A stretch of DNA of 64,000 nt from Candidatus Sumerlaeia bacterium (GCA_033764015.1 JANRJK010000036.1:276858-340857), one strand, 5' to 3'. Positions 1 to 54,403 are shown, counted from the first letter of the stretch. Made by a program: numbers and translations. The notes: generated from the letters alone by a model not told the origin.

Positions 1-1134
1 GCGGCGGGCTTGGGCCTCCGCGATCAGCCGGCGGATCTGGGCCTGCTGGGTCTCGCGTCGGAGGTGTTCGCCTGCGAACACTTGGGCGGCGGAAGCGCGG
101 CGCGATGCCTCTTCGGAGGAGGCGAGCGCGGCGCGCAACGCCTCCGCCAGCGGCGCCGGGCCGCCGCCTTCGAAGAGGAAACCCCGCCCGCCGCCGATCT
201 GCCACGCGACATCCCCGACGGCGCGGGCGCAGACCGGCGTGCCAATCATCATCGCTTCGCTGATGGAAATCGGCATCGCCTCGCCGTAGCTCGGAAGGAC
301 CAGGAGGTCCGCCGCGGCGATCAGCTCGTGCGCGTCGGTGCGGCGCCCGAGGTATTCGACGCCCGCGGGCCGCTCGCGAAGGAAGGCGCGGACTTCCGGA
401 TCGGGGTCCGATGCTTCTTCCGGCCCCACGACGACGAGCCGCAGCCCCGGATGATCGGCGCGGAGCCCGGGCCACACCGACATGAGGTCGGGGATTCCCT
501 TCCGCGCGCAGACGGTGCCGAGGAAGAGGAGCACGCGCTCGTCCGGCCGCCAACCCAGGCGCGAGCGCGTCGCGCCCCGGTCGGCCCGGAGTGCCGAGAG
601 CGAGGGATCGACGCCGTTCGGCGAGACCTCCCAGACGGCGCGAGCGGGGGAAGGGGCGAACAACTCAACCCCGGTGCTCGAGTCGAACGCCGCCGCGTGG
701 GCGAACCTCCGGACACAGAACCGCTTCAGTCCGTGGGTGTGTCCCTGGTGCCAGCCCTCGCGCACGTGGACGAGGAGCGGAAGCCCGAGCCGCGCCGCCG
801 CCAGCATGGGCGCGATCTGGACGCTCGAGTTGGCGTAGACGACCTCCGCGCCGCGGAGGGCGGCACCATAGCGCCCAAGAGACCCGAATCGGTTGAGTAG
901 CAGGCCGGGGGCCTTCCAAAGCGGGACATCGGAGATGCCGACGGTGGCGAGGCCGACCCGGCGGCACTCGATTCCCCCCTGCAGGAGCGGGGCCTCGAGC
1001 GGCGATGCGCATGGAAAGACCGCTATCGAACACTCCGCGGGCCAGCCGCCGGTGAGGAGGAAGTCCCGGAGCCAGAGCGTCGCGCCCGACGGCGCCTGGT
1101 GGTGGAAGCAGAATGCGACCCGCGGCGAATCCAT
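1..1134 (-). CDS. Glycosyltransferase family 1 (GT4-type), partial. The 3' end runs off the window start. It is absent from the ORF track because no stop codon falls inside the window.
   Basis: Manual minus-strand translation in the frame whose codon bottoms fall on 331, 334 and so on. It reads MDSPRVAFCFHHQAPSGATLW...RVLLFLGTVCARKGIPDL...PGLRLVVVGPEE...YLGRRTDAHELIAAADLLVLPSYGEAMPISISEAMMIGTPVCARAVGDVAWQI... This carries the canonical GT1 C-terminal E-x7-E / 'LVLPS..E..P..EAMA.G.PV' motif. ATG is the reverse complement of 1132-1134. Confidence 0.8.
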   Translation of the reverse strand, partial: MDSPRVAFCFHHQAPSGATLWLRDFLLTGGWPAECSIAVFPCASPLEAPLLQGGIECRRVGLATVGISDVPLWKAPGLLLNRFGSLGRYGAALRGAEVVYANSSVQIAPMLAAARLGLPLLVHVREGWHQGHTHGLKRFCVRRFAHAAAFDSSTGVELFAPSPARAVWEVSPNGVDPSLSALRADRGATRSRLGWRPDERVLLFLGTVCARKGIPDLMSVWPGLRADHPGLRLVVVGPEEASDPDPEVRAFLRERPAGVEYLGRRTDAHELIAAADLLVLPSYGEAMPISISEAMMIGTPVCARAVGDVAWQIGGGRGFLFEGGGPAPLAEALRAALASSEEASRRASAAQVFAGEHLRRETQQAQIRRLIAEAQARR

Positions 1135-1338
1135 GCGGGAAGGCGTTGGCGGCCAAGGGGTGGAAGCGCAAGGCGGAAGGGGTTGGGTGAATCAGTTTGA
1201 CATGCCAAACAGGCGTCGGGCACATCAACTACGCGCTGGCGCGCTCTGTGCCTATCTCTCCGGCAACAGCTTGCGTCGCCCCCACCCGGCGCCGAGCAAT
1301 CCCCTCGAAGGACCCCACGCGGCTTAGGCCAATCGCCG

Positions 1339-2007
1339 ATGCACGAGACACCCGCAGCCGCGCCCCACCGCGCCGAATCGGCTCGAAACGGGGCGGAGCG
1401 CCGCATTTCCGGCGCGTTCACCCTGATCGAGCTGCTCATCGTGGTGGCGATCCTCGCCATCCTGGCGGCGGTCGCGTTGCCGAACTTCCTCGAGGCGCAG
1501 GTGCGCTCGAAGGTCTCGCGGGTCCGGGCGGACATGCGCTCCATCGCCACTGCGGCGGAAGCGTACCACGTGGACAATAACCGATACCCCTATGTCGCGG
1601 ATACGCTGAACTCGCTGGATGAGCGCATGAGGCAGCTCACGACGCCGATCGCCTTCCTCACGTCGATTCCCCGCGACCCGTTCGTGCGCCGCAGCGGATC
1701 CGCATACGGGTTCGATTCCGCCGAGGACCCGAGCGGCGCGAGCTACTTGTACAACACCGGAAACGTCCTGGTCGGCCCCGGTGTGAGCGATCCGAACAAC
1801 GCGGGGCGGCAGGGCTGGTCGCTCACCAGCGGCGGACCCGACACGCTCCTCGAGTTTCCCTACTGGCCCTTCGCCGAGACGTTCATCATCTCGAACCAGC
1901 ACTTGAATTTCATCTACGATCCCACGAACGGGGCGGTCAGCCGGGGCGAAGTCTTCCGCCGCGGCGGGCGCGCGCTCCGTCCGATTCCGCAGATCGACAG
2001 CCAGTGA
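1339..2007 (+). CDS. Prepilin-type N-terminal cleavage/methylation domain protein, GspG-like major pseudopilin (type II secretion / type IV pilin-like)
   Basis: N-terminus ...GAFTLIELLIVVAILAILAAVALPNFLEAQVRSKVSRVRADMRSIATAAEAYHVDNNRYP matches the class III signal peptide / GspG consensus (G-F-T-L-I-E-L, then Y..DN..YP). The true start may lie downstream of the listed Met. Confidence 0.75.
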   Translation: MHETPAAAPHRAESARNGAERRISGAFTLIELLIVVAILAILAAVALPNFLEAQVRSKVSRVRADMRSIATAAEAYHVDNNRYPYVADTLNSLDERMRQLTTPIAFLTSIPRDPFVRRSGSAYGFDSAEDPSGASYLYNTGNVLVGPGVSDPNNAGRQGWSLTSGGPDTLLEFPYWPFAETFIISNQHLNFIYDPTNGAVSRGEVFRRGGRALRPIPQIDSQ

Positions 2008-2819
2008 AGAAGCCCCTCGCCGCGTTCCTCGCCGCGGCCGCGTTCGCGCGTGGCGGCACACCGCAGACCGCCGATCTGGAATTCCCGGCGGCACACGACG
2101 TCTGGCATTACTTCAATGCCTTCAACGCAGCGACGCGCGAGTTGGCACCCCCGTTCCTCCTGCCCCAGTCCTTCTCCGGAGGCGACCGCCGCGACGCCAC
2201 CGTGGCGCTCGTTTTCGACATCGAGGCGCCCACCGGCTTCCCCGCCAACTTCCGCGTCACCCAGGCCCGCCTGCGTGTCTGGGACATCCGCTTCGCCCAG
2301 TGGACCACGGGCGGGACGAACGAGTACGGCGGCCCGCGGCGAATCGAGCTGTTCGCCGCAGGCTTCGGCCCCGCCTACTCCGAAGCGACTTGGGACGGCA
2401 CGCAGCCCTTCATCGGCGGCAACAACGACTCGTCGTTCCCCCGCGACCCCTTCCCCCGCGACCTCGCGACCGACGCGAACGTGCAGAACGAGGTCCTCAG
2501 CTACGCGCCGTGGGCCATCGGCGCGCCGGTGGGCTATGCGCCCGGAGCGATGACGCAGGCGTTCCCCATCGACTTCACGCTCGATGTAGCGGACCCGACG
2601 ATCCAGCAGGAGTTGCGCGACGATCTCGCCTCGGGCTTCAGCTCGTGGATCGTCAGCTCGACGTTCGTCGCCGACTTCATGGGCCTTCCCGGGACGATCC
2701 CGAACGTGGTGATGGCCGAGGGGATCGGCAGCCACCCGCCCGCGACGGCACCGACTTTGTTCCTCACAATCGAGGAGGTCACTGCGGCCTCCGCCACCTC
2801 TTGGTTCTACTACGAGTAG
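2004..2819 (+). CDS. Secreted hypothetical protein carrying one copy of a novel domain of roughly 250 aa. It is paralogous to the two repeats in the downstream gene.
   Basis: Signal peptide MKKPLAAFLAAAAFARG. Its ATG overlaps the TGA of the pseudopilin gene (ATGA). It shares W-H-Y-(P)-F-N, G(F)..(Y)RD, 'PWGxGxPxYGxxxGxxxxG' and 'FPxxFTLDL...L..G' motifs with 2857..4533. Confidence 0.6.
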   Translation: MKKPLAAFLAAAAFARGGTPQTADLEFPAAHDVWHYFNAFNAATRELAPPFLLPQSFSGGDRRDATVALVFDIEAPTGFPANFRVTQARLRVWDIRFAQWTTGGTNEYGGPRRIELFAAGFGPAYSEATWDGTQPFIGGNNDSSFPRDPFPRDLATDANVQNEVLSYAPWAIGAPVGYAPGAMTQAFPIDFTLDVADPTIQQELRDDLASGFSSWIVSSTFVADFMGLPGTIPNVVMAEGIGSHPPATAPTLFLTIEEVTAASATSWFYYE

Positions 2820-2856
2820 CATCCCGGCCCAGGGCCGGTGAAAGGACCACCTAAAC

Positions 2857-4533
2857 GTGCTTCGACCCTGCTTGACCGCGGCCTTGTTCGCCGCCTGTGC
2901 CACGGCATCGCAGGCCGGCGGCACGGATAAGACCATCGCCGCACCCAGCGACGACCGCTGGCACTATCCGTTCAACCAGACACCCGGCTTCCGCACCACC
3001 GCGTCGCTCTTCGTGACGCCCCCCAACACGGGGTTCGACTACCGGGACGCGATGATGATGATCCGCTGGCGCCCCAGCCAGGACTCCCTCGCGCCGGACT
3101 TCATCCCGTCGGGGCTCGATCCCTCCGAGTACGAGTTCGACGCGGTCCGGATCACGGTGCACCACGCGACCGGCACGTACACGTGGGACACGCGCAACCC
3201 TGCGGTGAACTTCCAAGGGAAGCCCTTCGTGATGGAGGTCTTCGGCTTCGACGTCGATTCCGGCGTAAGCTTCACGGAGGAAACCTGGACCGAGTTCAGC
3301 CCCTTCTTCGGCCAGTCCCCCTTCACACCCACAGGCATCCGCAACCCGCACCCGCTAAACCTTCAGAGCACCTCGCCGCAGCCGAACGCGACGAATCTGG
3401 TCGATGCGCAGCCTTGGGGCTTCGGCGAACCGGTCTATGGCACCGACCCCGGGGAGTACACCCCGGGCGTCGCGGCCACCACGCCGTTCCCGGTCACCTT
3501 CACGCTCGATCTGTCGAACATCCGCGTGAAGCGGTACATCCAGGAGGCGCTCGCGGCGGGGCGCCTCGAGTTCGTCCTCTCCTCGACGGCGGGTCCCGCG
3601 GACCCCGGGGGCGGCCCTCCGGGCGGCGCGCAGACGTTCGTCCCGGTTCTGACCACGAAGGAGAACACCACCGCGCCGGCGCCGAGCATCACCTTCGAGA
3701 ACCTGCGCTTCCGCAACCGCGACCTGTCGCTCGTGGTGTCCGACGACCAGTGGCAGTACCCGTTCAACGCGACGCCCGGAACACGCACGAGCGCTTCGCT
3801 GTTCACGTCGCCGCCGGGCGCCGGGTTCGACTACCGCGACGGCATGATGATCGTGCGCTGGCGGATACCCGCGGACCCGTCGAGCCCGGACCACATCACT
3901 CCGGGGCTGCCGCCCGCGGCGTACCGGATCGAGGGCGCCACGGCGACACTCTGGCATTCTAGCGGCTCCTTCAACTGGGACACGCGGTCGCCCGCGATCA
4001 ACCCGTTCGGCGAGCCGTTCCGCCTCGAAGTGTTCGGCATGGGCGTTCTCCCCGGCGGGTCCTTCACCGCGGAGACGTGGACCGAGACCACCCCGATTTC
4101 CGCCGCGACCCCGTTTCCCCCGGTGCGCCCGCGCAACCCGTATCCGGTCGGCGGGAACCTCGCCAACCCGACGCAGAACGTCTCCAACACGCAGGGCGCG
4201 ACCGTGTGGGGCCTTGGCGAGCCGACCTATGGCGTCGATTCCGGGGAGTACTTCCCCGGCAGCGCCGCGCCGTTCCCCTTCCCCGTCGAGTTCGACTTGG
4301 ACCTGTCGAACCCGAACATCCTCGCGTACCTCCAGCGTGGCCTGTCGGAGGGGCGCATCGAGCTGGTGTTCGCATCGACCGCCGCCGCCGAACAGCCTGC
4401 CCGCGGTACCCCGCCGAGCGGCACGCCGGTGTTCCTCATGAAGGAAAGCGGCACCGGGCAGAACGCACCGCAGCTCCTGCTGCGCGGCGTTTCGATCCAA
4501 GAGCCGCTCGATAGCGGGTGGACGCTCCGGTAA
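2857..4533 (+). CDS. Secreted hypothetical protein with two tandem copies of the same novel domain
   Basis: Signal peptide MLRPCLTAALFAACATASQA. The two halves align: DRWHYPFNQTPGFRTTASLFVTPPNTGFDYRDAMMMIRWRPS versus DQWQYPFNATPGTRTSASLFTSPPGAGFDYRDGMMIVRWRIP; QPWGFGEPVYGTDPGEYTPG versus ATVWGLGEPTYGVDSGEYFPG; FPVTFTLDLSN...LAAGRLEFVLSST versus FPFPVEFDLDLSN...LSEGRIELVFAST. Confidence 0.6.
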   Translation: MLRPCLTAALFAACATASQAGGTDKTIAAPSDDRWHYPFNQTPGFRTTASLFVTPPNTGFDYRDAMMMIRWRPSQDSLAPDFIPSGLDPSEYEFDAVRITVHHATGTYTWDTRNPAVNFQGKPFVMEVFGFDVDSGVSFTEETWTEFSPFFGQSPFTPTGIRNPHPLNLQSTSPQPNATNLVDAQPWGFGEPVYGTDPGEYTPGVAATTPFPVTFTLDLSNIRVKRYIQEALAAGRLEFVLSSTAGPADPGGGPPGGAQTFVPVLTTKENTTAPAPSITFENLRFRNRDLSLVVSDDQWQYPFNATPGTRTSASLFTSPPGAGFDYRDGMMIVRWRIPADPSSPDHITPGLPPAAYRIEGATATLWHSSGSFNWDTRSPAINPFGEPFRLEVFGMGVLPGGSFTAETWTETTPISAATPFPPVRPRNPYPVGGNLANPTQNVSNTQGATVWGLGEPTYGVDSGEYFPGSAAPFPFPVEFDLDLSNPNILAYLQRGLSEGRIELVFASTAAAEQPARGTPPSGTPVFLMKESGTGQNAPQLLLRGVSIQEPLDSGWTLR

Positions 4534-4629
4534 CCCGCTTGCGGCGCTGGTACATGTTTGGCCTCTAGCGGCGGGGCCCGGGCGCGACCCGGGCCCCGCA
4601 ACCTTTTCCACTTCCCGGAGACCTTTGCC

Positions 4630-5427
4630 ATGCGCGGTGCCCTGATCGCCCTTTCCCTGCTGCTGGCCGCGTTGATCCCCGTCGCCGCCGGCGCACAGCC
4701 CGTCGGCGAGACCGTCGTTTACAAGGAGGGCGAGACCGAGTTGGAAGGCTTCGTCGTCTCCCCGGCCAAGCCCGGCGAGAAGCTCCCCGCGGTCCTTGTG
4801 GTCCACGAGTGGATGGGGCTGAACGACTTCGCGAAAGAGCAGGCGGCGCGCGTCGCGGACCTCGGCTATGTGGGCTTCGCGGTGGACATCTACGGCAAAG
4901 GCGTCCGGGCGAAGGACGCGCAGGAGGCGGGGCAGCTCGCGGGCAAGTACCGCTCCGGCGACCGGGCGCTGCTCCGGGCCCGCATCAACGCCGCGCTCGA
5001 AGAGGTCCGCAAGCGCCCCGACGTCGATGCGGACCGCATCGCGGCGATCGGCTTCTGCTTCGGCGGCTCGACGGTGCTCGAACTGGCGCGCTCCGGCGCC
5101 GATGTGCGTGGCGTCGTGAGCTTCCACGGCGGCATCGCCCCGGTCGACCCGGCGGACGCGAAAAACATCAAGGCGAAGGTGCTCGTGCTCCATGGCGCGG
5201 TCGACCCGTACGATCCGCGCGAGGAAGTGATCGCCTTCGAAGACGAGATGAACGCCGCCGGCGTTGACTACGAAGTGGTGCTCTACAGCGGCACGGTGCA
5301 CAGCTTCACGAACCCCGGCGCGGGGAACGACCCTTCGCGCGGCGCGGCGTACAACGAGCGTTCGGCCAAGCGCGCCTTCGCCCGTATGGAGGACTTCCTC
5401 GCGGAAGTCTTCGCGCCCAAGAAGTAA
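4630..5427 (+). CDS. Dienelactone hydrolase family protein (carboxymethylenebutenolidase-like), secreted
   Basis: Start trimmed to MRGALIALSLLLAALIPVAAGAQP (signal peptide). The alpha/beta-hydrolase DLH pattern is present: VLVVHEWMGLND...IGFCFGG...VLHGAVDPY...VHSF. Confidence 0.85.
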   Translation: MRGALIALSLLLAALIPVAAGAQPVGETVVYKEGETELEGFVVSPAKPGEKLPAVLVVHEWMGLNDFAKEQAARVADLGYVGFAVDIYGKGVRAKDAQEAGQLAGKYRSGDRALLRARINAALEEVRKRPDVDADRIAAIGFCFGGSTVLELARSGADVRGVVSFHGGIAPVDPADAKNIKAKVLVLHGAVDPYDPREEVIAFEDEMNAAGVDYEVVLYSGTVHSFTNPGAGNDPSRGAAYNERSAKRAFARMEDFLAEVFAPKK

Positions 5428-5457: not shown

Positions 5458-6525
5458 ATGGACCCGCTGACGCAAATGGCGCTGGGCGCCGCCGCCGGTG
5501 TCGCCGTTGCGGGCCGCAAGCTGCCGCGCGCCTCGCTGCTGGTCGGCGCGCTGGCGGGCGCGTTGCCCGACCTTGACGTCATCATCCATATCCCCGGCGA
5601 TCCGTTGTCGGGGATCATCTACCACCGGCACTTCACGCACTCGATCTTCCTAGCTCCGGTCATCGGCCTGCTCGCCGCGGCGGTGTTCATGCCGATGAAG
5701 CGTTATGCGCACCTGCGCCTGTGGTTGGCGGCGGCGGGCATCGCCGGCGCGCTGAGCCATGCGCCGCTCGATTGGATGACGAGCTACGGCACGCTGATCC
5801 TCTGGCCCTTCACCAACGCGCGGTTCGCGACGGACTGGCTTCCTATCATCGACCCGATCTTCACGCTGACGTTGATCGGCATCCTGGTGGCGGCGGGCTG
5901 CACGCGCCGCGCGGCGCTTCGGCCAGCGGGGCTGGCGTTTTGCGCGCTCTTCTTCGCCGCCGGGATCTGGCAGCATTCGCTCGCGACGGGCGCCACGCGG
6001 GAACTCGCCGCGGCGCGCGGCCACGAGCCGGTCCGGGTCCGGGCGCTGGCGCTGCCGGGGTCGCTGCTGCTCTGGCGGAGCGTCTACGAAGCGGACGGCC
6101 AGCTCCACCTCGACAGCTTCCGCACCGGGTTCCTCCGCGGCACCATGGCGAGGCCCGGCGCGACCGTTACGCTCGTGCGCGAATCCGATCTCCCCGCGCA
6201 CTTCGCCAGCGACCCCGAGGCCCTGCGCGCGTTCCGCGTGTGGGACTGGTTCACGGACGGCTACACGGCGTGGGTCGAAGGTGGCGAAGGGCGCACGCTG
6301 GGCGACTACCGCTATGTGCTGGACGCGGAGCGCGGCACGCCGATGTGGGGGATCGAGCTGGATCCGGACGCCCCGCGCCATGTGCGGCGCGTGAGCTTCC
6401 GCCCGAGCGCGGAGCGCTCGAAAGAGGAACTGCTCGCCGGCATCTTCCGCCCGGAGGAGCAGTATCAGCCGCTCGAGGACGTTGTGGCGTCGATCCGTGC
6501 CGCGGCGGTGGCTTCCCCCCGCTGA
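5458..6525 (+). CDS. Membrane-bound metal-dependent hydrolase, YdjM/YbcI (PF04307-like) family
   Basis: Polytopic membrane protein with a HRHFTHS motif (family consensus H-R-G-x-T-H-S) and several HxxxD/PLDW segments. Confidence 0.65.
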   Translation: MDPLTQMALGAAAGVAVAGRKLPRASLLVGALAGALPDLDVIIHIPGDPLSGIIYHRHFTHSIFLAPVIGLLAAAVFMPMKRYAHLRLWLAAAGIAGALSHAPLDWMTSYGTLILWPFTNARFATDWLPIIDPIFTLTLIGILVAAGCTRRAALRPAGLAFCALFFAAGIWQHSLATGATRELAAARGHEPVRVRALALPGSLLLWRSVYEADGQLHLDSFRTGFLRGTMARPGATVTLVRESDLPAHFASDPEALRAFRVWDWFTDGYTAWVEGGEGRTLGDYRYVLDAERGTPMWGIELDPDAPRHVRRVSFRPSAERSKEELLAGIFRPEEQYQPLEDVVASIRAAAVASPR

Positions 6526-6852: not shown

Positions 6853-7443
6853 ATGCGGAAGTCCATGCTCGTAGGCGCGGTGGCGACGGTCTTGGCGGCG
6901 GCGGTGGTGTTTTGCGTCGCGCAGGATGGAATGGAGGACGCAGGGCATTCGACGGGCGGGATGCCGGTGTTCAAGGCCGGACCGGAGCAGGAAGGCCTGA
7001 AGAGGCTCGTCGGGAAGTGGACCTCGGAGATGACGATGCCGATGGGACCGGGGATGCCCGACATGAAGTCCACCGGTTCGAGCGAGATCACGATGGTGGG
7101 GGAATTCTGGGCGGTCGAGCGCGCGACGTTCAACATGATGGATACTGAGATGGCCGGCCTCGGCATCTACGGCTACGACATCGTGAAGAAGGCGCACACG
7201 TCCAAGTGGGTGGACTCTTATGCCCCTTACGCCATGGATATAGAGGGGACGGTCGACAAGGACGGCAAGATGGTGATGACCGGCATGGGCCCGGACATGG
7301 CCATGAACGTCGACAACCTCACCGAGTACAAGATGGTGGGCACTTGGGTGGACGACGACACCCGCACCATGGACATGTTCATCATGATGCCCGATGGGCA
7401 GGAGATGAAGATCTGGTCGATGACGGCGAAGCGCGCCGAGTAG
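6853..7443 (+). CDS. DUF1579-like protein (Met-rich, lipocalin-like), secreted
   Basis: Signal peptide, then a Met-rich beta-type sequence (KWTSEMTMPMGPGMPDMK...GEFWAVERATFNMMDTEMAGLGIYGYD...WVDS) resembling the DUF1579 family. Confidence 0.6.
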   Translation: MRKSMLVGAVATVLAAAVVFCVAQDGMEDAGHSTGGMPVFKAGPEQEGLKRLVGKWTSEMTMPMGPGMPDMKSTGSSEITMVGEFWAVERATFNMMDTEMAGLGIYGYDIVKKAHTSKWVDSYAPYAMDIEGTVDKDGKMVMTGMGPDMAMNVDNLTEYKMVGTWVDDDTRTMDMFIMMPDGQEMKIWSMTAKRAE

Positions 7444-7568: not shown

Positions 7569-9998
7569 ATGCGCCCCCCGGGGCGCCCTCGGAAAGCGGA
7601 CATGGACGGCAGACCCCTCCCTGCCGAAGTGCCGGTGGCCCGGAACGCCTCGCAGACCTCTGCCCCGCCGCAAAGCCACGGCGGGACCGGGCCCTGTCTT
7701 CCGGCGCTCCTCTCCCCCCTCCCCTTCACCGAAGGCGACCTGACCGCAGGCTGCGAGCACGAGCTCCAAGCCGCCGTCTTCGGGACGCGCGACAGCGTCG
7801 ACCTCCCCCTCGTTATCCAACAGTCGAACTTCTACCGGAACCTGTGCAAGCGGGTGGAGCGCGGCGACGCGCCCCGCAGCGCGCTATCGAAGCTGGAGCA
7901 CCTCCTCGAGGACGCGGGGCCGCAGGGCTGGGACAATAGCTGGGTGCGCTTCCCGCTCGCATTCCTGAACGAGGAGGCGCGGGCGACGCTGCGGGCGGAC
8001 CTGCGCGCCGACAAGTCGGACGCCGCGAGCCCGCCCCGCGGCGACGAGCGGAGCTTCTTCGTCGAGCGCGAGGACGGCGACCACTGGGTGCGGGTGCCTG
8101 TGAGCTACCTGCTGAAGCTGTCGCTGGCGCAGATCGCCGGCGGCGACGACGACCTGCCGGCGGGGCTCCGCGCGGCGGTCCGCGATCTGCAGCAGCACTA
8201 CCTCTCGGACAACTCGTCCCCGGAGCTGACCAGCTTCCGGGTGGTGCCGCTGCGCGCCTCGCGGGGCCTCGGGCGGGCGCTCGGGACGGAGGCCGCCAAG
8301 CGCCTCCTCCTCACCTACCTCCTCGCCGAGTACGCCAACGACGAGTTCCGCCTGCGCGCCCTCGGGCAGGACGCGTCGGTGCACCAGTCCGCCAGCCCCA
8401 GCGCGCGCCAGCGCGAGATCAACGAGGCAGTGACGGACTCCTTCTACCGCGAGCTCTACATGAGCCCGTGCCTCTCCGGCTGGGAGCGCGGCGAGGAGAA
8501 GCTCGAGTACATGCGGCTCTGCCACCAGGTGCTGACCTGGAGCCAGCTCTGCGCGACGGTGAAGCTGCGCGACGCGGGGATCGTGGCGAACAACCTGATG
8601 GTGCCGCCCAGCCTCTCGACGCTGAGCCTCGCCAACAACGGCGTGCACATCACGATCGGCAGCCGGCGGCTCTCCGCGATGGGGCGCGCCGGGCACCCGG
8701 ACTGGACGCCCGCCGCGGAGAAGCGCGTCGGCGACCTGGTGACGAAGGTGGTCGAGCACTTCATGCCGCTCTTCCCCGGGGTCTTCAGCGCGGCGCCGCG
8801 CCGCATCGACTTCCGCCAGTTCCACCCGGAGCTGGTCCTCGGCTACCTGCCGCACGAGCTGGACTACTCGCACCTGCGCCCGCTCTGGCGCCGCTGGCGG
8901 CGCAAGGCGGACATCAAGTTCCTCGGCGCGACGATCACGCCCTTCGGCCCCCGGTGGATCGACGCGGCGGCGGGGACGCTGCTGGGGCTGCGCGGCGACT
9001 TCGTCCCCGACGCGCGGCTGCTCGAGTACCTGGTCTCGCCGCTCAGCACCCCCGAGAGCCCCGCGCTGGACGGGAGCGAGGGGAACTGGGACCGGCTGAA
9101 GAGCGACCTCGCGGACCACGGAGTCTTCCACAAGCGCCTCTCGCTCTACCTGATGTTCCGCCAGCGCTTCGCGAAGCAGCACGGCTTCTGCGGCTATGAA
9201 GGCCGCGCGCACAGCCTCTTCCCGCGCTTCAGCGACCTCGGCGACGCGGCGAGCCTGCAGGCGCTCCTGTGCGCCCACGCCACCCGGCTGGTCGCGACCG
9301 GCGCGGTGGCGCACGCGGACATCCCCGACACGCCGGAGGCGGAGAGCGAGCGGCGCCAGTTCTTCTTCGCCGGCGCCATCGGCCTCAAGAGCCTCAACAC
9401 CCGCCCGGAGGCGGGGAACCGCTTCCTCGCGGGGCTGCTGTCGCGCGCCGCGGACGCGAAGCCGAGCCGCCGCTATCCGGACCGCATGAAGGTGAAGCTC
9501 GCCGGCTACCGCCGCGCGCTGGTGGCGTCGCTGCGCGAGGACTCCGCGGACCTGGTGGAGCAACTCGGCCTGGGGGGGATGCTGGACGGCCTCGAGCGGC
9601 GCCTCGATCCCGCGACCGGCGAGGGCGCGGCGGAGCAATTGACGCGCGGCATCCTCGCGGTGGCCGGCGCGCGGACGCCGATGGCGCTCTCCGCCCGCGA
9701 GTTCGACGAGGCGGCGGAGCAGCACGCGCTGGGGCTGCTGCGCGCGGCGCACTTGGCGGAGGGCCTCGAGTCGCTGCGCGCGGACCTCGCGCTGGCGGCG
9801 TCGCACGGCCACCCCGCGGCCGCCGCCGCAGGCGAATGGCCCGCCCTCTGCCGCGAGGCGGAATCGGCATTCGCGCGCGGCTCGCGGCTCGATCCGCGGC
9901 TCGTGCGCAGGCTCCTTGCGGCAACCGTCGCGTCCATCGCGGCGGACGCCGAACTCGACCACCTCCCGGAGGCGAATGATGCAGCACCAGTACATTGA
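7569..9998 (+). CDS. Large hypothetical protein (809 aa) with no recognisable family. First gene of a three-gene lipid-associated module.
   Basis: Long ORF of normal amino-acid composition. It has no signal peptide, no TM segment and no motif I recognise, but carries conserved-looking Cys pairs (CEHE, CKRVE, CLSGWE, CHQVLTWSQLC). Its 3' end overlaps the start of the PSD-family gene by about 20 nt. Confidence 0.55.
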   Translation: MRPPGRPRKADMDGRPLPAEVPVARNASQTSAPPQSHGGTGPCLPALLSPLPFTEGDLTAGCEHELQAAVFGTRDSVDLPLVIQQSNFYRNLCKRVERGDAPRSALSKLEHLLEDAGPQGWDNSWVRFPLAFLNEEARATLRADLRADKSDAASPPRGDERSFFVEREDGDHWVRVPVSYLLKLSLAQIAGGDDDLPAGLRAAVRDLQQHYLSDNSSPELTSFRVVPLRASRGLGRALGTEAAKRLLLTYLLAEYANDEFRLRALGQDASVHQSASPSARQREINEAVTDSFYRELYMSPCLSGWERGEEKLEYMRLCHQVLTWSQLCATVKLRDAGIVANNLMVPPSLSTLSLANNGVHITIGSRRLSAMGRAGHPDWTPAAEKRVGDLVTKVVEHFMPLFPGVFSAAPRRIDFRQFHPELVLGYLPHELDYSHLRPLWRRWRRKADIKFLGATITPFGPRWIDAAAGTLLGLRGDFVPDARLLEYLVSPLSTPESPALDGSEGNWDRLKSDLADHGVFHKRLSLYLMFRQRFAKQHGFCGYEGRAHSLFPRFSDLGDAASLQALLCAHATRLVATGAVAHADIPDTPEAESERRQFFFAGAIGLKSLNTRPEAGNRFLAGLLSRAADAKPSRRYPDRMKVKLAGYRRALVASLREDSADLVEQLGLGGMLDGLERRLDPATGEGAAEQLTRGILAVAGARTPMALSAREFDEAAEQHALGLLRAAHLAEGLESLRADLALAASHGHPAAAAAGEWPALCREAESAFARGSRLDPRLVRRLLAATVASIAADAELDHLPEANDAAPVH

Positions 9999-16267: not shown

Positions 16268-18583
16268 TCAGGGCTTCGGCAGCGCGGCGCCGGTGCCGCC
16301 GCCGCCGAGCGGGGCCGCGGAGGCGAGGAACTGCTCCATGCCGAGGGCGAAGTACAGGAGGAACACCACCGCGCCGAGCAGCATCACGAGGCCGTAGACC
16401 TGGATCTGGCCGTTCTGCAGGCGGCGCAGCTCGGAGCCGACGAAGCGCGCGAAGCGCCCGATGCCGTTGACGACACCGTCGACCACGCCCATGTCGAACT
16501 TCCACACGCCGAGGCTGACCATCCACGCGCCGTCCTTGAAGAAGGCGTTGTAGAAGTCGTCCCACCACCAGCGGTTGGCGGAGACGGCGAAGAGCGGGCC
16601 GAGGGCGCGCTCCGCGCGGCGTTCGCGCTCGACGCCGTTCGTGTAGAACCAGCGGGCGAAGAGGAGCGAGAAGATCGCCACCGCGCCCGAGACGCCGGCG
16701 AGGATCAGCTCCTTGTTGCTCTTGTGCGCGTCGGCGGCGGGGATCTCGCCCGCCACGACGTAGGCGCCGTAGGGGATCGAGTCGCCCAGGTAGCCGAGCT
16801 TCGTCGCCGCGACCACCGCCGCCCCGCGGTCCGTGACGGGTTCGAGGAAGTGGTGGAACATGGCGTTGAAGTCGCCCATCGGGATCAGGCCCTTCGGCAC
16901 GTTGAGGAAGCCGACGACCAGCGCGAGGCCCGCGAGCACCACGAGGGGGGTCGTCATCGCGCGCCCCGATTCGTGGACGTGGTCCGCGATCTTCGGATCG
17001 ACGCGCGACTCGCCCGCGAAGGTGAGGAAATACGTGCGGCCCATGTAGACCGCCGTCATGACGGCGGTGGCCATGCCGAGCACGTAGAGGAAGGGGAACT
17101 GGCCGCCGTGCGAGAGGAAGGTGAAGTAGAGGATTTCGTCCTTCGAGAAGAAGCCGGAGGTGAGGGGGAAGCCGGCGATGCAGAGCGTCGCGAGCAGGTA
17201 CGTCATCGCGGTGACCGGCATCTTCTTCCGAAGGCCGCCCATCTTGTGCATGTCCTCCTCGTGGTGCAGCGCGTGGATCACCGATCCGGCGCAGAGGAAG
17301 AGGCAGCCTTTGAAGAAGGCGTGCGTGAAGACGTGGAAGATGCCGGCGGCGAAGGAGCCGACGCCCATGGCGAGGAACATGTAGCCGAGCTGCGAGACGG
17401 TCGAGTAGGCGAGGGCCTTCTTGATGCCGCGCTGCGTGAGGCCGGCGAAGGCGGCCACGAAGGCCGTGAGCCCGCCGACGATCGCGACCACCGCGAGCGT
17501 AGTGGGCGAGAACATGAAGAGCACGTTGAGGCGCGCCACCATGTACACGCCGGCGGTCACCATGGTCGCCGCGTGGATCAGCGCGGAGACGGGCGTCGGG
17601 CCCGCCATGGCGTCCGGCAGCCAGGTGAAGAGGGGGATTTGCGCGGACTTGCCGGTCGCGCCGAGGAAGAGCAGCAGCGTCGCCGCGGTGAGCAGCCCGC
17701 CGCCGTAGAGGAAGCCCTGCGGAACCGCCGAACCGTCGAGGAGCTTGCCGGTGGCGACGATGTCGATGAGGTCCTGCATGTTCACGGTGCCGAGGCCCCA
17801 GAACAGGAGGAACATGCCGAGCATCAGGCCGAAGTCGCCGATACGGTTGACGACGAACGCCTTCCGCCCCGCGTCGGCGCAGCTCAGGTTCTCGGAGAAG
17901 GGTCGGTCGAAGAAGTACCCGATCAGCAGGTAGGAGCAGAGGCCCACGCCCTCCCAGCCGATGAACATGGTGACGAGGCTGTCGCCGAGGACGAGGGTGA
18001 ACATCGCGGCGGCGAAGAGCGCGACGTAGGCGAAGAAGCGCGCGTAGCCGGGATCGAGAACGTCGTCGCCGACGCGCTCGCCCTGCGGCCCGTGGTGGTG
18101 GCCGTGCCCGTGATCGTCGTGCCCGTGTCCGTGGTCGCCGTGGCCATGGGCGGAGAACTTCTCGCGCATGTAGCCGGTCGCGTAGATGAACACGAACGTG
18201 CCGATGAAGCTGACGAACATGAGGAAGAGGGCGCTGAGCGGGTCGACGTAGAACGCGAAGTCGGCCGTGAGCGGGCGGCTGAGGCCGATGGCGTCGCCGG
18301 AGAACTCGAACCAGGTCCAGAGGTGGACGGTGCCGTGCTCGCGCAGTGCGGCGTTGATGGCCGCGGTGCGGTCGGCGACGTCGGCGATGGAGGCCGCGGC
18401 GGCCTCCGCCTCGTGCAGGTGGTGCTTCACTTCGAGGAACGCCAGCGTGGCCATCACGAAGGTGGAGGCCATCGCAAGGACGCTGATGTAGCCGGCGAAA
18501 CGCCCGAGCTTGCGCACGCCGAGGCCGTTGATGAGCGCGGCCAGCAGCATCACAGCGGGGACCGCCCAGATATACTGGATCAT
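16268..18583 (-). CDS. nuoL: NADH-quinone oxidoreductase subunit L (ND5-like), with a His-rich insertion and an extended C-terminus
   Basis: IPLFTWLPDAMAGPTPVSALIHAATMVTAGVYMVARL is the ND5/NuoL consensus. At 771 aa it is longer than typical NuoL and includes the HGHGDHGHGHDDHGHGHHHG loop. Confidence 0.9.
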   Translation of the reverse strand: MIQYIWAVPAVMLLAALINGLGVRKLGRFAGYISVLAMASTFVMATLAFLEVKHHLHEAEAAAASIADVADRTAAINAALREHGTVHLWTWFEFSGDAIGLSRPLTADFAFYVDPLSALFLMFVSFIGTFVFIYATGYMREKFSAHGHGDHGHGHDDHGHGHHHGPQGERVGDDVLDPGYARFFAYVALFAAAMFTLVLGDSLVTMFIGWEGVGLCSYLLIGYFFDRPFSENLSCADAGRKAFVVNRIGDFGLMLGMFLLFWGLGTVNMQDLIDIVATGKLLDGSAVPQGFLYGGGLLTAATLLLFLGATGKSAQIPLFTWLPDAMAGPTPVSALIHAATMVTAGVYMVARLNVLFMFSPTTLAVVAIVGGLTAFVAAFAGLTQRGIKKALAYSTVSQLGYMFLAMGVGSFAAGIFHVFTHAFFKGCLFLCAGSVIHALHHEEDMHKMGGLRKKMPVTAMTYLLATLCIAGFPLTSGFFSKDEILYFTFLSHGGQFPFLYVLGMATAVMTAVYMGRTYFLTFAGESRVDPKIADHVHESGRAMTTPLVVLAGLALVVGFLNVPKGLIPMGDFNAMFHHFLEPVTDRGAAVVAATKLGYLGDSIPYGAYVVAGEIPAADAHKSNKELILAGVSGAVAIFSLLFARWFYTNGVERERRAERALGPLFAVSANRWWWDDFYNAFFKDGAWMVSLGVWKFDMGVVDGVVNGIGRFARFVGSELRRLQNGQIQVYGLVMLLGAVVFLLYFALGMEQFLASAAPLGGGGTGAALPKP

Positions 18584-18628
18584 CTCAGCAGGTTCCTCAT
18601 TCCGGTCGGATCAACGGGGGACACTCGC

Positions 18629-20173
18629 CTAGTACCTCACGAGCACGAAGAAGATCATGGGGAAGACGCCGAAGAGCAGCAGCATGCCGGCGGCGACGCC
18701 GAGGGCGAGGGTGCCCGGCGCTAGGACCGCGGCCGAATCGCCGCCCCCCGCGAGCTGCGCCGCGTCCGCGCCCGCCTCCTCGTCGGTCATGAACATCGTC
18801 ACGACGAGGCGGAGGTAGTAGAACGCGGAGATCACCGAGGCGAGCACGCCGATCACCGCGAGGCCATACTGGCCCTGCTCGATCGCATGGCGGAAGACGT
18901 AGAACTTGCCGATGAAGCCGACGGTCGGCGGGATGCCGGTCAGGCTGAACAGGGCGAGCGCCATGCCGGAGGCGGCCATGGGGCTGCGCTTCCAGAGGCC
19001 GCGGTAGTTCTTCATCTCGCCTTCGCCGCCCTTGCCGAGGTGGTGCGCGAGGCCGAACGCGAGCACGTTCATCAGCGTGTAGCCGAAGAGGTAGAGGAGG
19101 ATCGACTCGGCGATCTCCTGCTGCTGGAAGCTGAGCGCTTCGAGGCTTGCCGTCGGGAGGCTCATGAGCGCGACGTAGGCGACCATGACGTAGCCGCCGT
19201 GGGCGATGGAGCTGAAGGCGAGCATGCGCTTGACGTTGGTCTGCGCGAGCGCCTGCACGTTGCCCCAGACGATGGAGGCCGCGGCGACGGCGGTGAGCAG
19301 GAACGCGGCGGCGTTGTAGAACGGGGGCCAGGAGGCCAGCGTCACGATGACATGGAACAGGAGCGCGAACACGCCGATCTTCGAGGCGGTGGCGATCGCC
19401 ATGGTCGTGGTGGTGGGGGCTCCCTGGTAGACGTCCGGCGCCCACATGTGGAAGGGCGCGAGGGACAGTTTGAAGCTGATGCCAACGAAGAGGAGCGTGA
19501 AGCCCATGAAGGCGAAGACGGCGTTGAGCGGCGAGGTGGATCCGTCGAGGAGCGGGCGCGCGCCGGTGCGGAACACTTCGGCCATGTCGTTCAGGCGGGT
19601 GGAGCCGGTGGCGCCGTAGAGGAAGGCCATGCCCATGACGAAGAAGGCGGAGGCGAAGGCGCCGAGGACGAAGTACTTGAAGGCGCCCTCGGTAGAGCGC
19701 GCGCTGCGCCGGTCGATCCCGGTCAGCACGTAGAGCGACAGCGAGAGGATCTCGATGGCGATGAAGGCGGTGACCAGTTCGTTTGCGAGCGAGAGCGTCA
19801 CCATGCCGAGCGCGGCGAAGAGGATGAGCGCGTAGTATTCGCCCGACGGCAGGTTGCGGCGGCGGACCGTCTCCGGGCCGAGCACTGTCATCACGAACAT
19901 GGCGAAGAGGATGGTGACGCTGCCGAGGACGCCGAAGCGGTCGACGCGCAGGAAACCTTCGAGGAAGGGGCGGTTCGCGGGCCAGAGCGGGAGGAAGAAG
20001 GTCGCGAGGGCCGCGAGAAGTGCGGCGCCGGCGATGAAGGGGAGCACGCGGCGGCTGCCCGCCTTGTTGGACGCGGCGTCGGCGACGAGGCAGCCGAGCG
20101 CTCCCGCGAGGAGGATCAGGAGCGGGGCCAGCTGCTCGATGATGATGACGGGGATGTAGGGTTGTCCGGCCAT
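18629..20173 (-). CDS. nuoN: NADH-quinone oxidoreductase antiporter-like subunit; the motif favours NuoN (ND2-like)
   Basis: FKLSLAPFHMWAPDVYQGAPTTTT matches the NuoN/ND2 'PFHxWxPDVYxGAPT' pattern rather than the NuoM 'PLHTWLPDAHxEAPT' pattern. Its position between nuoK and nuoL is atypical. Confidence 0.7.
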   Translation of the reverse strand: MAGQPYIPVIIIEQLAPLLILLAGALGCLVADAASNKAGSRRVLPFIAGAALLAALATFFLPLWPANRPFLEGFLRVDRFGVLGSVTILFAMFVMTVLGPETVRRRNLPSGEYYALILFAALGMVTLSLANELVTAFIAIEILSLSLYVLTGIDRRSARSTEGAFKYFVLGAFASAFFVMGMAFLYGATGSTRLNDMAEVFRTGARPLLDGSTSPLNAVFAFMGFTLLFVGISFKLSLAPFHMWAPDVYQGAPTTTTMAIATASKIGVFALLFHVIVTLASWPPFYNAAAFLLTAVAAASIVWGNVQALAQTNVKRMLAFSSIAHGGYVMVAYVALMSLPTASLEALSFQQQEIAESILLYLFGYTLMNVLAFGLAHHLGKGGEGEMKNYRGLWKRSPMAASGMALALFSLTGIPPTVGFIGKFYVFRHAIEQGQYGLAVIGVLASVISAFYYLRLVVTMFMTDEEAGADAAQLAGGGDSAAVLAPGTLALGVAAGMLLLFGVFPMIFFVLVRY

Positions 20174-20195
20174 GGGTTTGCGGGCGGGGCTGGGG

Positions 20196-20504
20196 TCAGC
20201 CGCGCATCAGGTCGACCTCGTCCACGTGGATGTTCTGCTTCGCGCGGAAGAGCGCGATGAAGATGGCGAGGCCCACGCCGGCTTCGGCGGCGGCGACGGT
20301 CATGATGAAGAGCGCCAGGATGCCGCCGGACATGAGCCCGTGCGCGTGCGCGAAGCTGACGATGGCCAGGTTCGCGGCGTTCAGCATCAGTTCGACGGAA
20401 AGGAACACGGCGATCGCATTGCGCTTCCAGACGACGCCGAGAATGCCCATCGTGAAGAGGAGCAGGCTGAGGAGCAGGTTGCCTTCGAAGAGGAGGGGGG
20501 ACAT
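20196..20504 (-). CDS. nuoK: NADH-quinone oxidoreductase subunit K
   Basis: 102 aa; ...VELMLNAANLAIVSFA... is typical of NuoK/ND4L. Confidence 0.9.
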   Translation of the reverse strand: MSPLLFEGNLLLSLLLFTMGILGVVWKRNAIAVFLSVELMLNAANLAIVSFAHAHGLMSGGILALFIMTVAAAEAGVGLAIFIALFRAKQNIHVDEVDLMRG

Positions 20505-20516
20505 CGGGTCGGGGGC

Positions 20517-21053
20517 TTACTCCGTGTCGATGGTGATTTCGTTGCCGTCCTCGTCCTGTCGGCGCGCCATGGCGACCGCGCCGATGACGGCGACGAGGAG
20601 GATCACCGAGGTGAGCAGGAAAGGCAGCACCCAGAAGGTGACGAGGGAGGTTGCGATGGAGGTGACGTCGCTGGGCTCGTGGACGATGGGGTGGCCTCCG
20701 GCGATCTGCGCCGCGGCGAATGTCTTCACGCCGAAGGCCGCGAGGAGGAAGAACGCCAAGGCGAGCGCGCCGCCCCAGAAGCGCGCGTCGCGCAGGTACC
20801 AAGGCGCCTGTTCGCGCTCGCGCAGGTTCAGCAGCATGACGACAAACAGGAAGACGACCATGATCGCGCCGGCGTAGATGATGATCTGGATCAGCGCGAC
20901 GAACTCGTTCTGCATCATCAGGAAGTTGACGGCGAGGCAGACCATCACGAGGATGAGCGCCATGGCGGACTTGACAGTGTCCCGGGTGAAGAGGACGAGG
21001 CCGGCGCCGAGCACCGTGAGGGCGAAGATCAGGTAGTAGAAGAGGTCAAACAT
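20517..21053 (-). CDS. nuoJ: NADH-quinone oxidoreductase subunit J
   Basis: 178 aa with a 3-TM N-terminus, ...IIIYAGAIMVVFLFVVMLL... (ND6/NuoJ). Confidence 0.85.
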   Translation of the reverse strand: MFDLFYYLIFALTVLGAGLVLFTRDTVKSAMALILVMVCLAVNFLMMQNEFVALIQIIIYAGAIMVVFLFVVMLLNLREREQAPWYLRDARFWGGALALAFFLLAAFGVKTFAAAQIAGGHPIVHEPSDVTSIATSLVTFWVLPFLLTSVILLVAVIGAVAMARRQDEDGNEITIDTE

Positions 21054-21203
21054 GGGTGCTCTTGGACTCCGGGCGAGCCCGTGTTCCTTCGTGGCCGGTG
21101 GCGTATCCAGCGGCGGCGGCCGCCGCGGGGGAAAGCACGAAATGACCCGGGGCGGAGCCCGGGCCGGGGAAAGCGTTCAACCCGCCGCGACAGCTTCCGT
21201 CGC

Positions 21204-21737: not shown

Positions 21738-21805
21738 GGGGCGGTCACTCCGGGCGGGGCGTCGTGTCTCGTCGGGGTGTGCGGGGCAACGGTCGCGCCA
21801 TCGGC

Positions 21806-23092: not shown

Positions 23093-23336
23093 CGACGACC
23101 GTCGTTGGGGGTTGGCGCGGGGATTGCGCCTAGCGTCACAAACCAGACCGGCAGGGTTGGGGTTCCACCAAAGGGGTGTCAACGGCCAATCGGGAGAGCG
23201 CGCGGCTGGCGCGGCGCCTGGTCGATAGGAGCCGCTTTCGCGTTGACGCTCGCGGTAAGCGGGGGGTCCCTTGGGGCTTCAGTGACTTGGCGATCCACCG
23301 CCGCCACTTCCCGTCCCGGAGGCGTTCCGCGCGTCC

Positions 23337-54385: not shown

Positions 54386-54403
54386 GCCCGCGCCGGGAAA
54401 CGG

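Follow-up and report, generated by a model that had tools for sequence, protein, structure and literature searches.

What does a lone pseudopilin gene do when it is followed by two genes for secreted proteins built from the same domain? PVC-group bacteria and their neighbours carry very many orphan pilin-like proteins of unknown role, and the extent of heme and iron uptake in these bacteria is poorly understood. The three genes considered here (A, B and C) lie in a 64-kb stretch of DNA from a Candidatus Sumerlaeia bacterium, hereafter the window. A-B-C is one instance of a conserved module of a pilin-like protein and one or more secreted domain proteins. The domain family is tied to its pilin-like partner in at least five phyla, and its gene context gives a specific and testable hypothesis of heme or iron capture.

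Organization of the locus

The open reading frames of A, B and C are borne out as originally predicted (Table 1). A and B share a 4-nt stop/start overlap, and the junction reads CAGTGAAG. The predicted coupling of the two genes stands, and the overlap is a translational coupling, but it is GTGA with a GTG start codon rather than ATGA. Junctions of the A/B type in two relatives, L174 and L175, also have a 4-nt overlap, there as ATGA. The divergent gene upstream of A is a GT1 glycosyltransferase, as anticipated. The two genes downstream of C are on the same strand as A-B-C, with gaps of 24–96 nt and 30 nt, and are possibly co-transcribed with it. It is doubtful that they belong to the module, and neither the dienelactone-hydrolase (DLH) nor the YdjM family is recurrent beside the domain in other loci. 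Scans of positions 1000–5000 give no promoter-like site and one terminator-like site, which lies within B; this count is below chance expectation. Inspection by eye of positions 1160–1340, 5' of A, reveals no convincing palindrome of a Fur or DtxR/IdeR box.

Table 1. Features of the A-B-C locus and its flanks, in window coordinates
Feature	Position	Strand	Length	Description
GT1 glycosyltransferase	1-1191	-		Glycos_transf_1 E=4.8e-22; divergent, upstream of A
Gene A	1339..2007	+	222 aa	GspG-like pseudopilin
Prepilin cleavage/methylation motif and start of hydrophobic helix	1408..1479	+		A aa 24-47, SG-A↓FTLIELLIVVAILAILAAVALP; N_methyl match
GTGA overlap	2004..2007	+		TGA stop of A and GTG start of B; read from sequence
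Gene B	2004..2819	+	271 aa	Secreted, single domain copy
Domain copy 1	2082..2768	+		B aa 27-255; most diverged copy; HMM 8.6e-65
C-terminal tail of B, AASATSWFYYE	2784..2816	+		Instance of W-x-x-[YF]-[YE]-COOH
Gene C	2857..4533	+	558 aa	Secreted, tandem pair of domain copies
Domain copy 2	2935..3699	+		C aa 27-281
Domain copy 3	3733..4485	+		C aa 293-543; HMM 2.6e-93
Dienelactone-hydrolase-family protein	4558-5427	+		Pfam DLH 1.9e-49; downstream of C
YdjM-family membrane protein	5458-6525	+		Pfam YdjM 4e-33; downstream of the DLH gene

Gene A is named 'type II secretion system protein GspG' by NCBI, in a Candidatus Sumerlaeia MAG. It passes the Pfam cutoffs for both N_methyl (PF07963; 29.1 bits, cutoff 21.2, E=6.6e-7) and T2SSG (30.7 bits, cutoff 21, E=3.5e-7), in agreement with its prediction as a GspG-like pseudopilin, and it also passes TIGR02532 (25.9 bits, cutoff 16.3). 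Against the GspG equivalog model TIGR01710 it reaches 53.1 bits, under the curated cutoff of 88.85. Like GspG/PulG, A has a prepilin leader and a hydrophobic N-terminal helix with Glu5, and its T2SSG match spans the first half of the globular domain. Unlike them, mature A is ~60 aa longer and is an orphan coupled to a putative binding protein. Glu31 takes the +5 position only with cleavage after Ala26, which is the probable processing site judged from the sequence. The residue preceding F in the partner pseudopilins is G or A throughout. A is the sole prepilin-motif ORF within the window, where no gene for a prepilin peptidase, secretin or platform protein is found. No gsp operon (gspD/E/F, minor pseudopilins H-K) surrounds A, whose flanks are the GT1 gene, the domain proteins, DLH and YdjM, and no T2SS/T4P machinery, including gspD, gspE and gspF, lies near the locus. 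The only related machinery gene of the window encodes a PilT/T2SSE-type ATPase (46545-47633), 42 kb from the locus.

The N-termini of B and C are both basic and run into a hydrophobic stretch (read by eye), in line with the Sec signal peptides assigned to them. C was also considered as a lipoprotein from the sequence LFAAC at residues 10-14 and rejected, since the cysteine is not kept among homologues. For this reason the signal peptide of C is more likely type I.

The DRWxYPFN domain and its family

B and C are built from a domain of ~245 aa, named here the DRWxYPFN domain from its invariant N-terminal motif. The domain HMM finds exactly three copies over the 64-kb window, all in B and C, confirming the predicted distribution. 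In composition-adjusted BLASTP, the two copies of C (C1 and C2, copies 2 and 3) are 48% identical over 259 aa (E=1e-81), and B is 27–28% identical to C1 and C2 (E=3e-14 and 8e-13). Smith-Waterman scores compared with 200 shuffles give z values of 79.9 for C1/C2, 22.6 for B/C1 and 20.6 for B/C2. The similarity is therefore genuine, and these two measures rule out the low-complexity Gly/Pro artefact that a dot-plot was to expose. The conserved blocks quoted in the original prediction are found in C1 and C2, but B has only diverged versions of them (VWHYFNAFN, GGDRRDA, PWAIGAPVGYAPG and FPIDFTLDVAD). Among relatives, B is 45% identical to a 270-aa protein of locus L002 and 60% identical to a 273-aa protein of L175. 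C, a hypothetical protein in NCBI (SF028_11295), shares 41–42% identity with P0002, P0003 and P0004, which likewise have two domains.

An exhaustive profile search of 1.84 billion proteins retrieves 670 cluster representatives at E<=1e-3, of which 343 pass E<=1e-30, a sizeable family with no entry in Pfam or NCBIfam. Representatives come mostly from Planctomycetota, Verrucomicrobiota, Kiritimatiellota, Omnitrophota and Sumerlaeota, and the domain loci number 319 in GTDB species genomes and 249 in metagenomes. Over 98 domains, residues D33, W35, Y37 and G235 do not vary, and 99% retain R162. The invariant Tyr and near-invariant Arg are thus kept across the family, and a conserved His/Cys cluster typical of metal sites is absent from the same 98 domains. 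B and C have no match in Pfam or NCBIfam at E<=1, and neither do 27 domain copies in Pfam at E<=1; a PDB sequence search with the A1 profile gives no match at E<=10. These searches rule out a known sequence family. The novelty claimed for the domain holds for its sequence and fails for its fold, which is a β-sandwich of the CBM96/DNRLRE type.

The AF2 model of B has a pLDDT of 89.7 and a pTM of 0.89. The domain is superposable on the alginate-binding TM6-N4 of Dp0100 (PDB 7VBO) and on a chondroitin-sulfate-binding DNRLRE-domain module (PDB 8WAB). The fold is the same, with no detectable sequence relationship (DNRLRE model NF033679 does not match B or C at E<=1, and the PDB sequence search gives nothing at E<=10). 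The DRWxYPFN domain is ~80 residues larger, has its own signature (D-R-W-x-Y-P-F-N, F-x-x-R-D and a lone Arg) and is almost always paired with a pilin-like gene. DNRLRE/CBM96 modules bind anionic polysaccharide and are usually appendages of a lyase or hydrolase, whereas no catalytic module is fused to the DRWxYPFN domain in ~60 members inspected. The structures nearest to the domain use Arg, Lys and Tyr residues to bind polyanions (PMC9971899). Known heme-binding folds do not occur among its structural matches.

Every domain protein combines an N-terminal signal sequence with a C-terminal element for sorting or docking. The element can be a dockerin-like repeat or a PEP-CTERM signal; in this lineage it is a short, flexible W-x-x-Y-E tail. 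The motif W-x-x-[YF]-[YE]-COOH forms the C-terminus of 11 Sumerlaeota-type domain proteins. In the AF2 model the tail of B is without secondary structure (pLDDT 64–68). B and C, with the C-termini SWFYYE and GWTLR, lack PEP-CTERM (PF07589, TIGR02595). Verrucomicrobiota and Kiritimatiellota members do have it, as does the partner protein encoded upstream in planctomycete loci. A relation to PEP-CTERM-associated families, raised earlier as a challenge to novelty, applies in that many relatives have PEP-CTERM or dockerin-like tails, but the domain itself is in no library.

Tails of the dockerin-like and PEP-CTERM kinds are typically found on surface or exopolysaccharide-associated proteins, the divergent gene upstream of A encodes a GT1 glycosyltransferase, and the phyla that carry the domain are known polysaccharide degraders. 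The module might on this evidence be a glycan-binding adhesin or lectin, close to the original prediction: a non-catalytic module for anionic polysaccharide (such as alginate, a glycosaminoglycan or exopolysaccharide of the cell itself). Its tail and the pilin would keep it at the surface for attachment or polymer capture. We consider this rather unlikely, though it is a serious contender. CAZyme catalytic fusions are missing among the members inspected, no lyase or hydrolase recurs in the neighbourhoods, the DNRLRE model finds no match, and the reading leaves unexplained why, in four phyla, the gene shares operons with hmuTUV, hemS and heme oxygenase (see below). If the ligand is a glycan, the module would still be a new kind of pilin-coupled surface lectin, and the domain family would merit a curated model under either ligand.

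Pairing with prepilin-type genes

At loci with full flanks, a prepilin-motif ORF lies within 1 kb of the domain gene in 64 of 71 genome loci and 39 of 44 metagenome loci (~90%). At distances of more than 2 kb, the background is none of these ORFs in 493 kb and a single one in 277 kb. In the reverse direction, each of the three closest homologues of A has a domain gene after it. The expectation that homologues neighbour prepilin genes thus holds almost always, and a dedicated link between the domain and a pilin-like gene is supported. A single family of partner pseudopilins was considered and rejected: the partners form two clusters that are homologous only over the N-terminal ~55 aa, and in other phyla the partner, unlike GspG/PulG, is another pilin, without detectable homology in its globular domain. 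One protein, P0163, carries domain, PEP-CTERM and pilin in one ORF and was examined as a Rosetta-stone fusion. An internal prepilin leader cannot work, so P0163 is more likely a read-through of two adjoining genes.

A itself is one of a large family of pseudopilins, and thousands of matches have its N-terminal helix in common. Together with its GspG annotation and the signal sequences of B and C, this would suit an ordinary substrate of type II secretion, or an exoprotein of no relation, encoded beside a generic pseudopilin gene. Such an origin is highly improbable. Type II substrates are not normally encoded beside a single orphan pseudopilin, no gspD, gspE or gspF is nearby, A and B are coupled by their 4-nt start/stop overlap, and the pair stays adjacent in at least five phyla, with either of two unrelated globular domains in the pilin. 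Analogies are the minor-pilin-plus-adhesin sets of type IV pili (PilY1 with PilVWX) and modular pilins such as S. sanguinis PilB, where a member of the pilin family likewise has a genetic link to a binding protein or domain that is not a pilin (putative in the present case). [quoted passage not shown] The domain family and its pilin pairing appear to be undescribed, and a literature search on the pilin-domain pair, pilin-linked heme uptake in these phyla and DUF6607 found nothing relevant.

Heme and iron genes around the pair

In ~15% of loci, genes for heme oxygenase, HemS/ChuX or an HmuTUV-type transporter are in the same gene string as the pair. Heme-specific genes occur at 14 of 85 genome loci and 10 of 80 metagenome loci, against a general expectation, and not a matched control, of ~1–2 such genes per genome. 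Heme oxygenase and HemS/ChuX are the commonest specific neighbours. Locus L002 is syntenic with the window (57%, 45% and 42% identity for the counterparts of A, B and C) and reads Peripla_BP_2, FecCD, ABC ATPase, pilin, B-like, C-like, heme oxygenase and ChuX. The gene order is pilin, domain and heme oxygenase in L001; pilin, B-like, domain and ChuX/HemS in L175; DtxR-type repressor, pilin and domain in L089; and pilin, two-domain protein and Peripla_BP_2 in L093. Verrucomicrobiota and Kiritimatiellota loci show the order PBP, FecCD, ABC, HemS, domain (PEP-CTERM) and pilin with gaps of 0–43 nt, and in Kiritimatiellota bacterium B12222 (CP120722.1) the pair lies within an hmuTUV-hemS operon. 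The domain is co-operonic with heme genes in L001, L002, L175, L034, L044, L050, L065, L071, L077 and others. A ZnuA/ABC-3/DtxR-type operon adjoins L065, and CbiX is found at L030. The window itself has no heme or iron gene in its 64 kb, nor does the domain locus of another Sumerlaeota genome (L086), and at ~80–85% of loci no recognisable iron gene lies within 6 kb. In planctomycetes, the commonest arrangement has other genes beside the domain instead, namely those for a PEP-CTERM protein, for membrane proteins of small size and for a Kelch protein. Heme genes are not adjacent in the window, and the function suggested for its locus rests on orthology with L002, L001, L175, L089 and L093.

This recurrent association, absent from the original prediction, points to nutrient capture and not adhesion. 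We tentatively propose that the module is a dedicated pilin with a surface-binding protein, serving most likely the extracytoplasmic capture step of heme or iron acquisition. The domain proteins would be delivered to the envelope or surface of the cell and may there bind an anionic ligand. Since the operons around the pair provide all steps of heme use but the extracytoplasmic one, this ligand would most likely be heme, or a carrier of heme or iron. The pseudopilin could have an inner-membrane anchor or form a short pseudopilus, and it would dock or shuttle the loaded domain protein toward a periplasmic HmuT-type binding protein. The pair would then take the place of a hemophore and outer-membrane-receptor step.

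The same neighbourhoods might instead reflect a shared metal regulon, with the protein capturing another ligand (metal ion, siderophore or cobamide) or acting as a general iron-starvation envelope protein. Peripla_BP_2/FecCD transporters import siderophores and B12 too, and the ZnuA/ABC-3/DtxR-type operon at L065, CbiX at L030 and the DtxR-type repressor at L089 are in line with this. We regard such a role as improbable: heme oxygenase and HemS/ChuX act on heme only, and the domain lacks the His/Cys cluster of metal sites. Zinc capture does have a precedent in the PEP-CTERM exoprotein ZepA, which scavenges zinc (PMC10957091). Like ZepA, relatives of B and C are small secreted proteins that bear a signal peptide plus a PEP-CTERM tail, and metal nutrition is implied by genomic context. 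ZepA is also sporadically distributed, including in PVC bacteria, but it is described as a new and separate fold family (PMC10957091), and it handles zinc and has no pilin partner.

For capture of heme, which we tentatively favour, the comparison is with HasA, HmuY, the NEAT-domain Isd proteins and hemophilin. As in these systems, operons of the relatives combine the gene for a secreted or surface protein with those for a heme ABC importer and for cytoplasmic enzymes that process heme. The domain has no sequence or fold similarity to any of them, heme binding is suggested here by gene context, and its partner is a pseudopilin where theirs is a TonB-dependent receptor or sortase-anchored relay. 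Alongside ZepA, this reading has a precedent in a type IV pilin whose promotion of iron acquisition does not depend on piliation (PMC13170364). A bolder and more doubtful extension is that the pair forms an unrecognised envelope route for heme (or another tetrapyrrole or iron carrier) in PVC bacteria and Sumerlaeota. A surface-tethered β-sandwich 'hemophore' would hand over to a dedicated pseudopilin or pseudopilus in place of a TonB-dependent receptor, and W-x-x-Y-E would be a new docking/sorting signal equivalent to PEP-CTERM and dockerin tails. If true, this would give one class of orphan pilin-like genes its first concrete job.

The repeated domain and its predicted fold

The span 1339-4533 consists of three ORFs on one strand: A, a pseudopilin, B, a one-domain protein, and C, with domain copies C1 and C2. 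A matches the Pfam prepilin cleavage/methylation motif (N_methyl, 6.6e-7) and the GspG-type globular start (T2SSG, 3.5e-7). Against the GspG equivalog it reaches 53.1 bits, under the cutoff of 88.85, and it is labeled GspG in a Candidatus Sumerlaeia MAG annotation; a hypothetical protein of that MAG is identical to C. The stop of A overlaps the GTG start of B as GTGA, not as the ATGA originally read, and B and C are separated by 37 nt. The divergent gene upstream of A is a GT1 glycosyltransferase, as described before.

The original prediction placed one copy of a novel domain in B and two in C, and pairwise alignment and the domain HMM both agree. C1 and C2 share 48% identity (E=1e-81), and B shares 27–28% with either (E about 1e-13). 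Local alignment scores lie 80 SD (C1/C2) and 21–23 SD (B with the C copies) above the mean of 200 shuffles. The HMM (245 positions) finds three copies in the whole window, all in B and C. The domain also keeps its standing as unrecognized: at E≤1, B, C and 27 domain copies of homologues are without a match in Pfam or NCBIfam, and no PDB sequence matches the family profile at E≤10. A profile search run exhaustively against 1.84 billion representatives gave 670 matches at E≤1e-3 (343 at E≤1e-30), and pattern scans gave 319 loci from GTDB species genomes and another 249 from metagenome contigs. Proteins of the family have one, two or three copies. The majority of carriers are Phycisphaerae and other Planctomycetota, the rest including Verrucomicrobiota, Kiritimatiellota, Omnitrophota and Sumerlaeota. 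Across 98 domains, D33, W35, Y37 and G235 (C numbering) are invariant, R162 is 99% conserved, and conservation reaches 95% or more at P38, F39, N40, F52, F60, R63, D64 and F215.

Given the family alignment, AlphaFold2 predicts a β-sandwich plus one helix for both C1 (pLDDT 90.9, pTM 0.90) and B (pLDDT 89.7, pTM 0.89). PDB entry 8WAB is the sole significant Foldseek match. By these models, the family is remotely related in structure to modules that bind polyanions. Compared with CBM96-type modules, the domain is ~80 residues larger and has no membership at sequence level. The CBM96 ligand groove is formed by Lys, Arg and Tyr residues, with Arg36 essential (PMC9971899). A glycan-binding adhesin, close to the adhesin originally proposed, is a reading of the domain protein that we consider rather unlikely. 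No known heme-binding fold is among the structural matches.

Pairing with pilins and other partners

The pairing was counted in loci whose flanks both reach at least 1.2 kb. In 64 of 71 such loci from genomes and 39 of 44 from metagenomes, the domain gene has a prepilin-motif ORF no more than 1 kb away, which is either directly downstream on its strand or upstream and divergent. Homologues almost always neighbour a prepilin-type gene; the remaining loci have none within that distance. In flanks beyond 2 kb, 493 kb of genome sequence contains 0 such ORFs and 277 kb of metagenome sequence contains 1. In the window, A is the only prepilin-motif ORF, and secretin, platform protein and prepilin peptidase are all absent from the 64 kb. 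That B and C are merely unrelated cargo seems very improbable. In the reverse test, each of the closest A homologues that could be looked up (57–67% identity) is followed by domain genes, and two of these homologues show a 4-nt ATGA overlap. The pilin partners form two clusters, ~197-aa mature GspG-like proteins (the window type) and a ~261-aa type, homologous only over the N-terminal ~55 residues, which indicates that the pairing was kept while the pilin head changed. One protein, P0163 (585 aa), carries domain, PEP-CTERM signal, prepilin leader and DUF1559-like pilin in one ORF; it is probably a read-through of two adjacent genes, and its internal order matches Verrucomicrobiota loci.

In 36 planctomycete loci, a ~230-aa PEP-CTERM protein, its body without a Pfam or NCBIfam match, adjoins the domain gene, mostly immediately upstream. 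These loci usually also carry small multi-pass membrane proteins; one without a Pfam match is often 5' of the PEP-CTERM protein. Kelch-repeat proteins are frequent: one of ~740 aa, with Cys-rich C-terminal repeats (CPVM...CCETC), follows the pilin in seven planctomycete loci, and shorter ones lie close to the pair in L091 and L174. A second PEP-CTERM module of ~200 aa (W..F..AFG..N.PDV.GS.GD...), without a library match, is a separate gene 5' of the domain gene or is fused N-terminally in one to three copies (P0021, P0090, P0095).

Three endings follow the last domain. Most planctomycete members have dockerin-like D-x-D-x-DG repeats, and a PEP-CTERM signal ends other members, among them all from Verrucomicrobiota/Kiritimatiellota that are located in heme operons. 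In the lineage of the window, a short W-x-x-[YF]-[YE] tail takes their place (SWFYYE in B, GWNLYE in family member P0007, QWHFYE in L175); C ends in a deviant GWTLR. The tail occurs at protein ends only, never between tandem domains, and is unstructured in the B model (pLDDT 64–68). This points to a docking or sorting element outside the fold, and the signal may be an undescribed one. The parts are of known kinds: pilin-like anchor, CBM96-like sandwich, PEP-CTERM or dockerin tails. In literature and family libraries, we found nothing on the domain family, the pilin pairing, the aromatic tail or the heme-operon placement.

Heme gene neighbourhoods

L002, the syntenic relative of A-B-C (57%, 45% and 42% identity, respectively), carries on one strand Peripla_BP_2, FecCD and ABC ATPase genes, then pilin, B-like and C-like genes, then heme oxygenase and a ChuX-type gene. 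Among the other close relatives, L001 has the order pilin, domain, heme oxygenase, and L175 has pilin, B-like, domain, ChuX/HemS. In L089 a DtxR-type repressor gene precedes pilin and domain, in L093 pilin and two-domain protein are followed by Peripla_BP_2, and in L030 CbiX and DUF6607 come after the domain genes. Six Verrucomicrobiota/Kiritimatiellota loci show PBP, FecCD, ABC, two-domain HemS, domain protein and pilin with gaps of 0–43 nt. A gene for heme oxygenase or HemS/ChuX is no farther than about 6 kb away in 14 of the 85 non-redundant loci from genomes and in 10 of the 80 from metagenomes. Genomes normally have one or two such genes, so these counts suggest a tens-fold enrichment relative to that general figure, which is no matched control.

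The heme operons encode a periplasm-to-cytoplasm importer and cytoplasmic heme handlers, and an outer-membrane or extracellular component is absent; the secreted domain protein and pilin would therefore be obvious candidates for the missing extracytoplasmic step. We tentatively propose that the pair is a heme/iron capture module, which is quite possible from gene content. A zinc-scavenging PEP-CTERM exoprotein (PMC10957091) and a Legionella type IV pilin with a pilus-independent role in promoting iron acquisition (PMC13170364) make the idea plausible. We keep it tentative because neither heme nor iron genes occur in the 64-kb window, L086 from another Sumerlaeota genome has peptidase M16 and an MFS transporter in their place, most planctomycete loci have no recognizable iron gene, and no known heme-binding fold was matched. 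A role with another ligand or in general metal starvation is improbable. Heme/iron capture is directly testable in a carrier whose genome has been sequenced completely (CP120722.1).

In L065 (Kiritimatiellota bacterium B12222), a ZnuA/ABC ATPase/ABC-3 permease operon converges on the heme-domain-pilin operon, and one permease carries, as a fusion, the C-terminal domain of an iron-dependent repressor. In Omnitrophota-type loci, a DUF6607 gene comes right after the domain genes, in L030 with a CbiX-type chelatase between; we found no mention of DUF6607 in the literature.

Other features of the window

On the + strand 3' of C are a dienelactone-hydrolase-family gene, a YdjM-family gene and, after a 328-nt gap, a DUF1579 gene, around which G+C dips to 0.63–0.65 from ~0.70. 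Its product is unusually rich in Met (MPMGPGMPDM, MMDTEM, DMFIMMPDGQEM); such Met-rich motifs are often Cu(I) sites. A solitary T2SSE/PilT-type ATPase gene has a DUF2851 gene on one side and, on the other, the second gene for a GT1 glycosyltransferase. The first of two Ser/Thr kinase genes adjoins a DUF7544 gene and that of an 854-aa CarboxypepD_reg-domain protein. Five long ORFs (386–1004 aa) are candidate genes by ORF length and third-position G+C.

Coordinates of window and locus features
Feature	Position	Strand	Remark
A	1339-2007	+	222 aa; prepilin motif, start of GspG-type globular domain
B	2004-2819	+	271 aa; GTG start
B tail	2784-2816		W-x-x-[YF]-[YE]
C	2857-4533	+	558 aa
DUF1579 family	6853-7443	+	Pfam 4.5e-32; signal-like N-terminus
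Long ORF	7569-9998	+	no Pfam match at E≤1
NuoL, M, K, J, H types	16268-23182	-	NADH:quinone oxidoreductase membrane-subunit gene run
Long ORF	23337-24497	+	no Pfam match at E≤1e-4
Ser/Thr kinase	24550-26307	+	
DUF7544	26319-27311	-	
Long ORF	33332-35173	-	no Pfam match at E≤1e-4
Long ORF	41322-44174	-	no Pfam match at E≤1e-4
T2SSE/PilT-type ATPase	46545-47633	-	Pfam T2SSE 3.3e-48
Long ORF	51971-54985	-	no Pfam match at E≤1e-4
Ser/Thr kinase	60804-62546	-	
Tailed domain proteins, Sumerlaeota/Omnitrophota-type	L002:7113-7925, L001:8001-8924, L175:6651-8417, L089:1734-2666		W-x-x-[YF]-[YE]
~230-aa PEP-CTERM protein	L024:5168-5938, L005:7252-7938		34 other loci
~740-aa Kelch protein	L033:7269-9497		six other loci
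Second ~200-aa module	L006:7134-7919		
ZnuA operon	L065:7758-11933	-	
DUF6607	L012:8520-9449		Pfam 2e-82
DUF6607	L030:9073-11238		Pfam 1.2e-88
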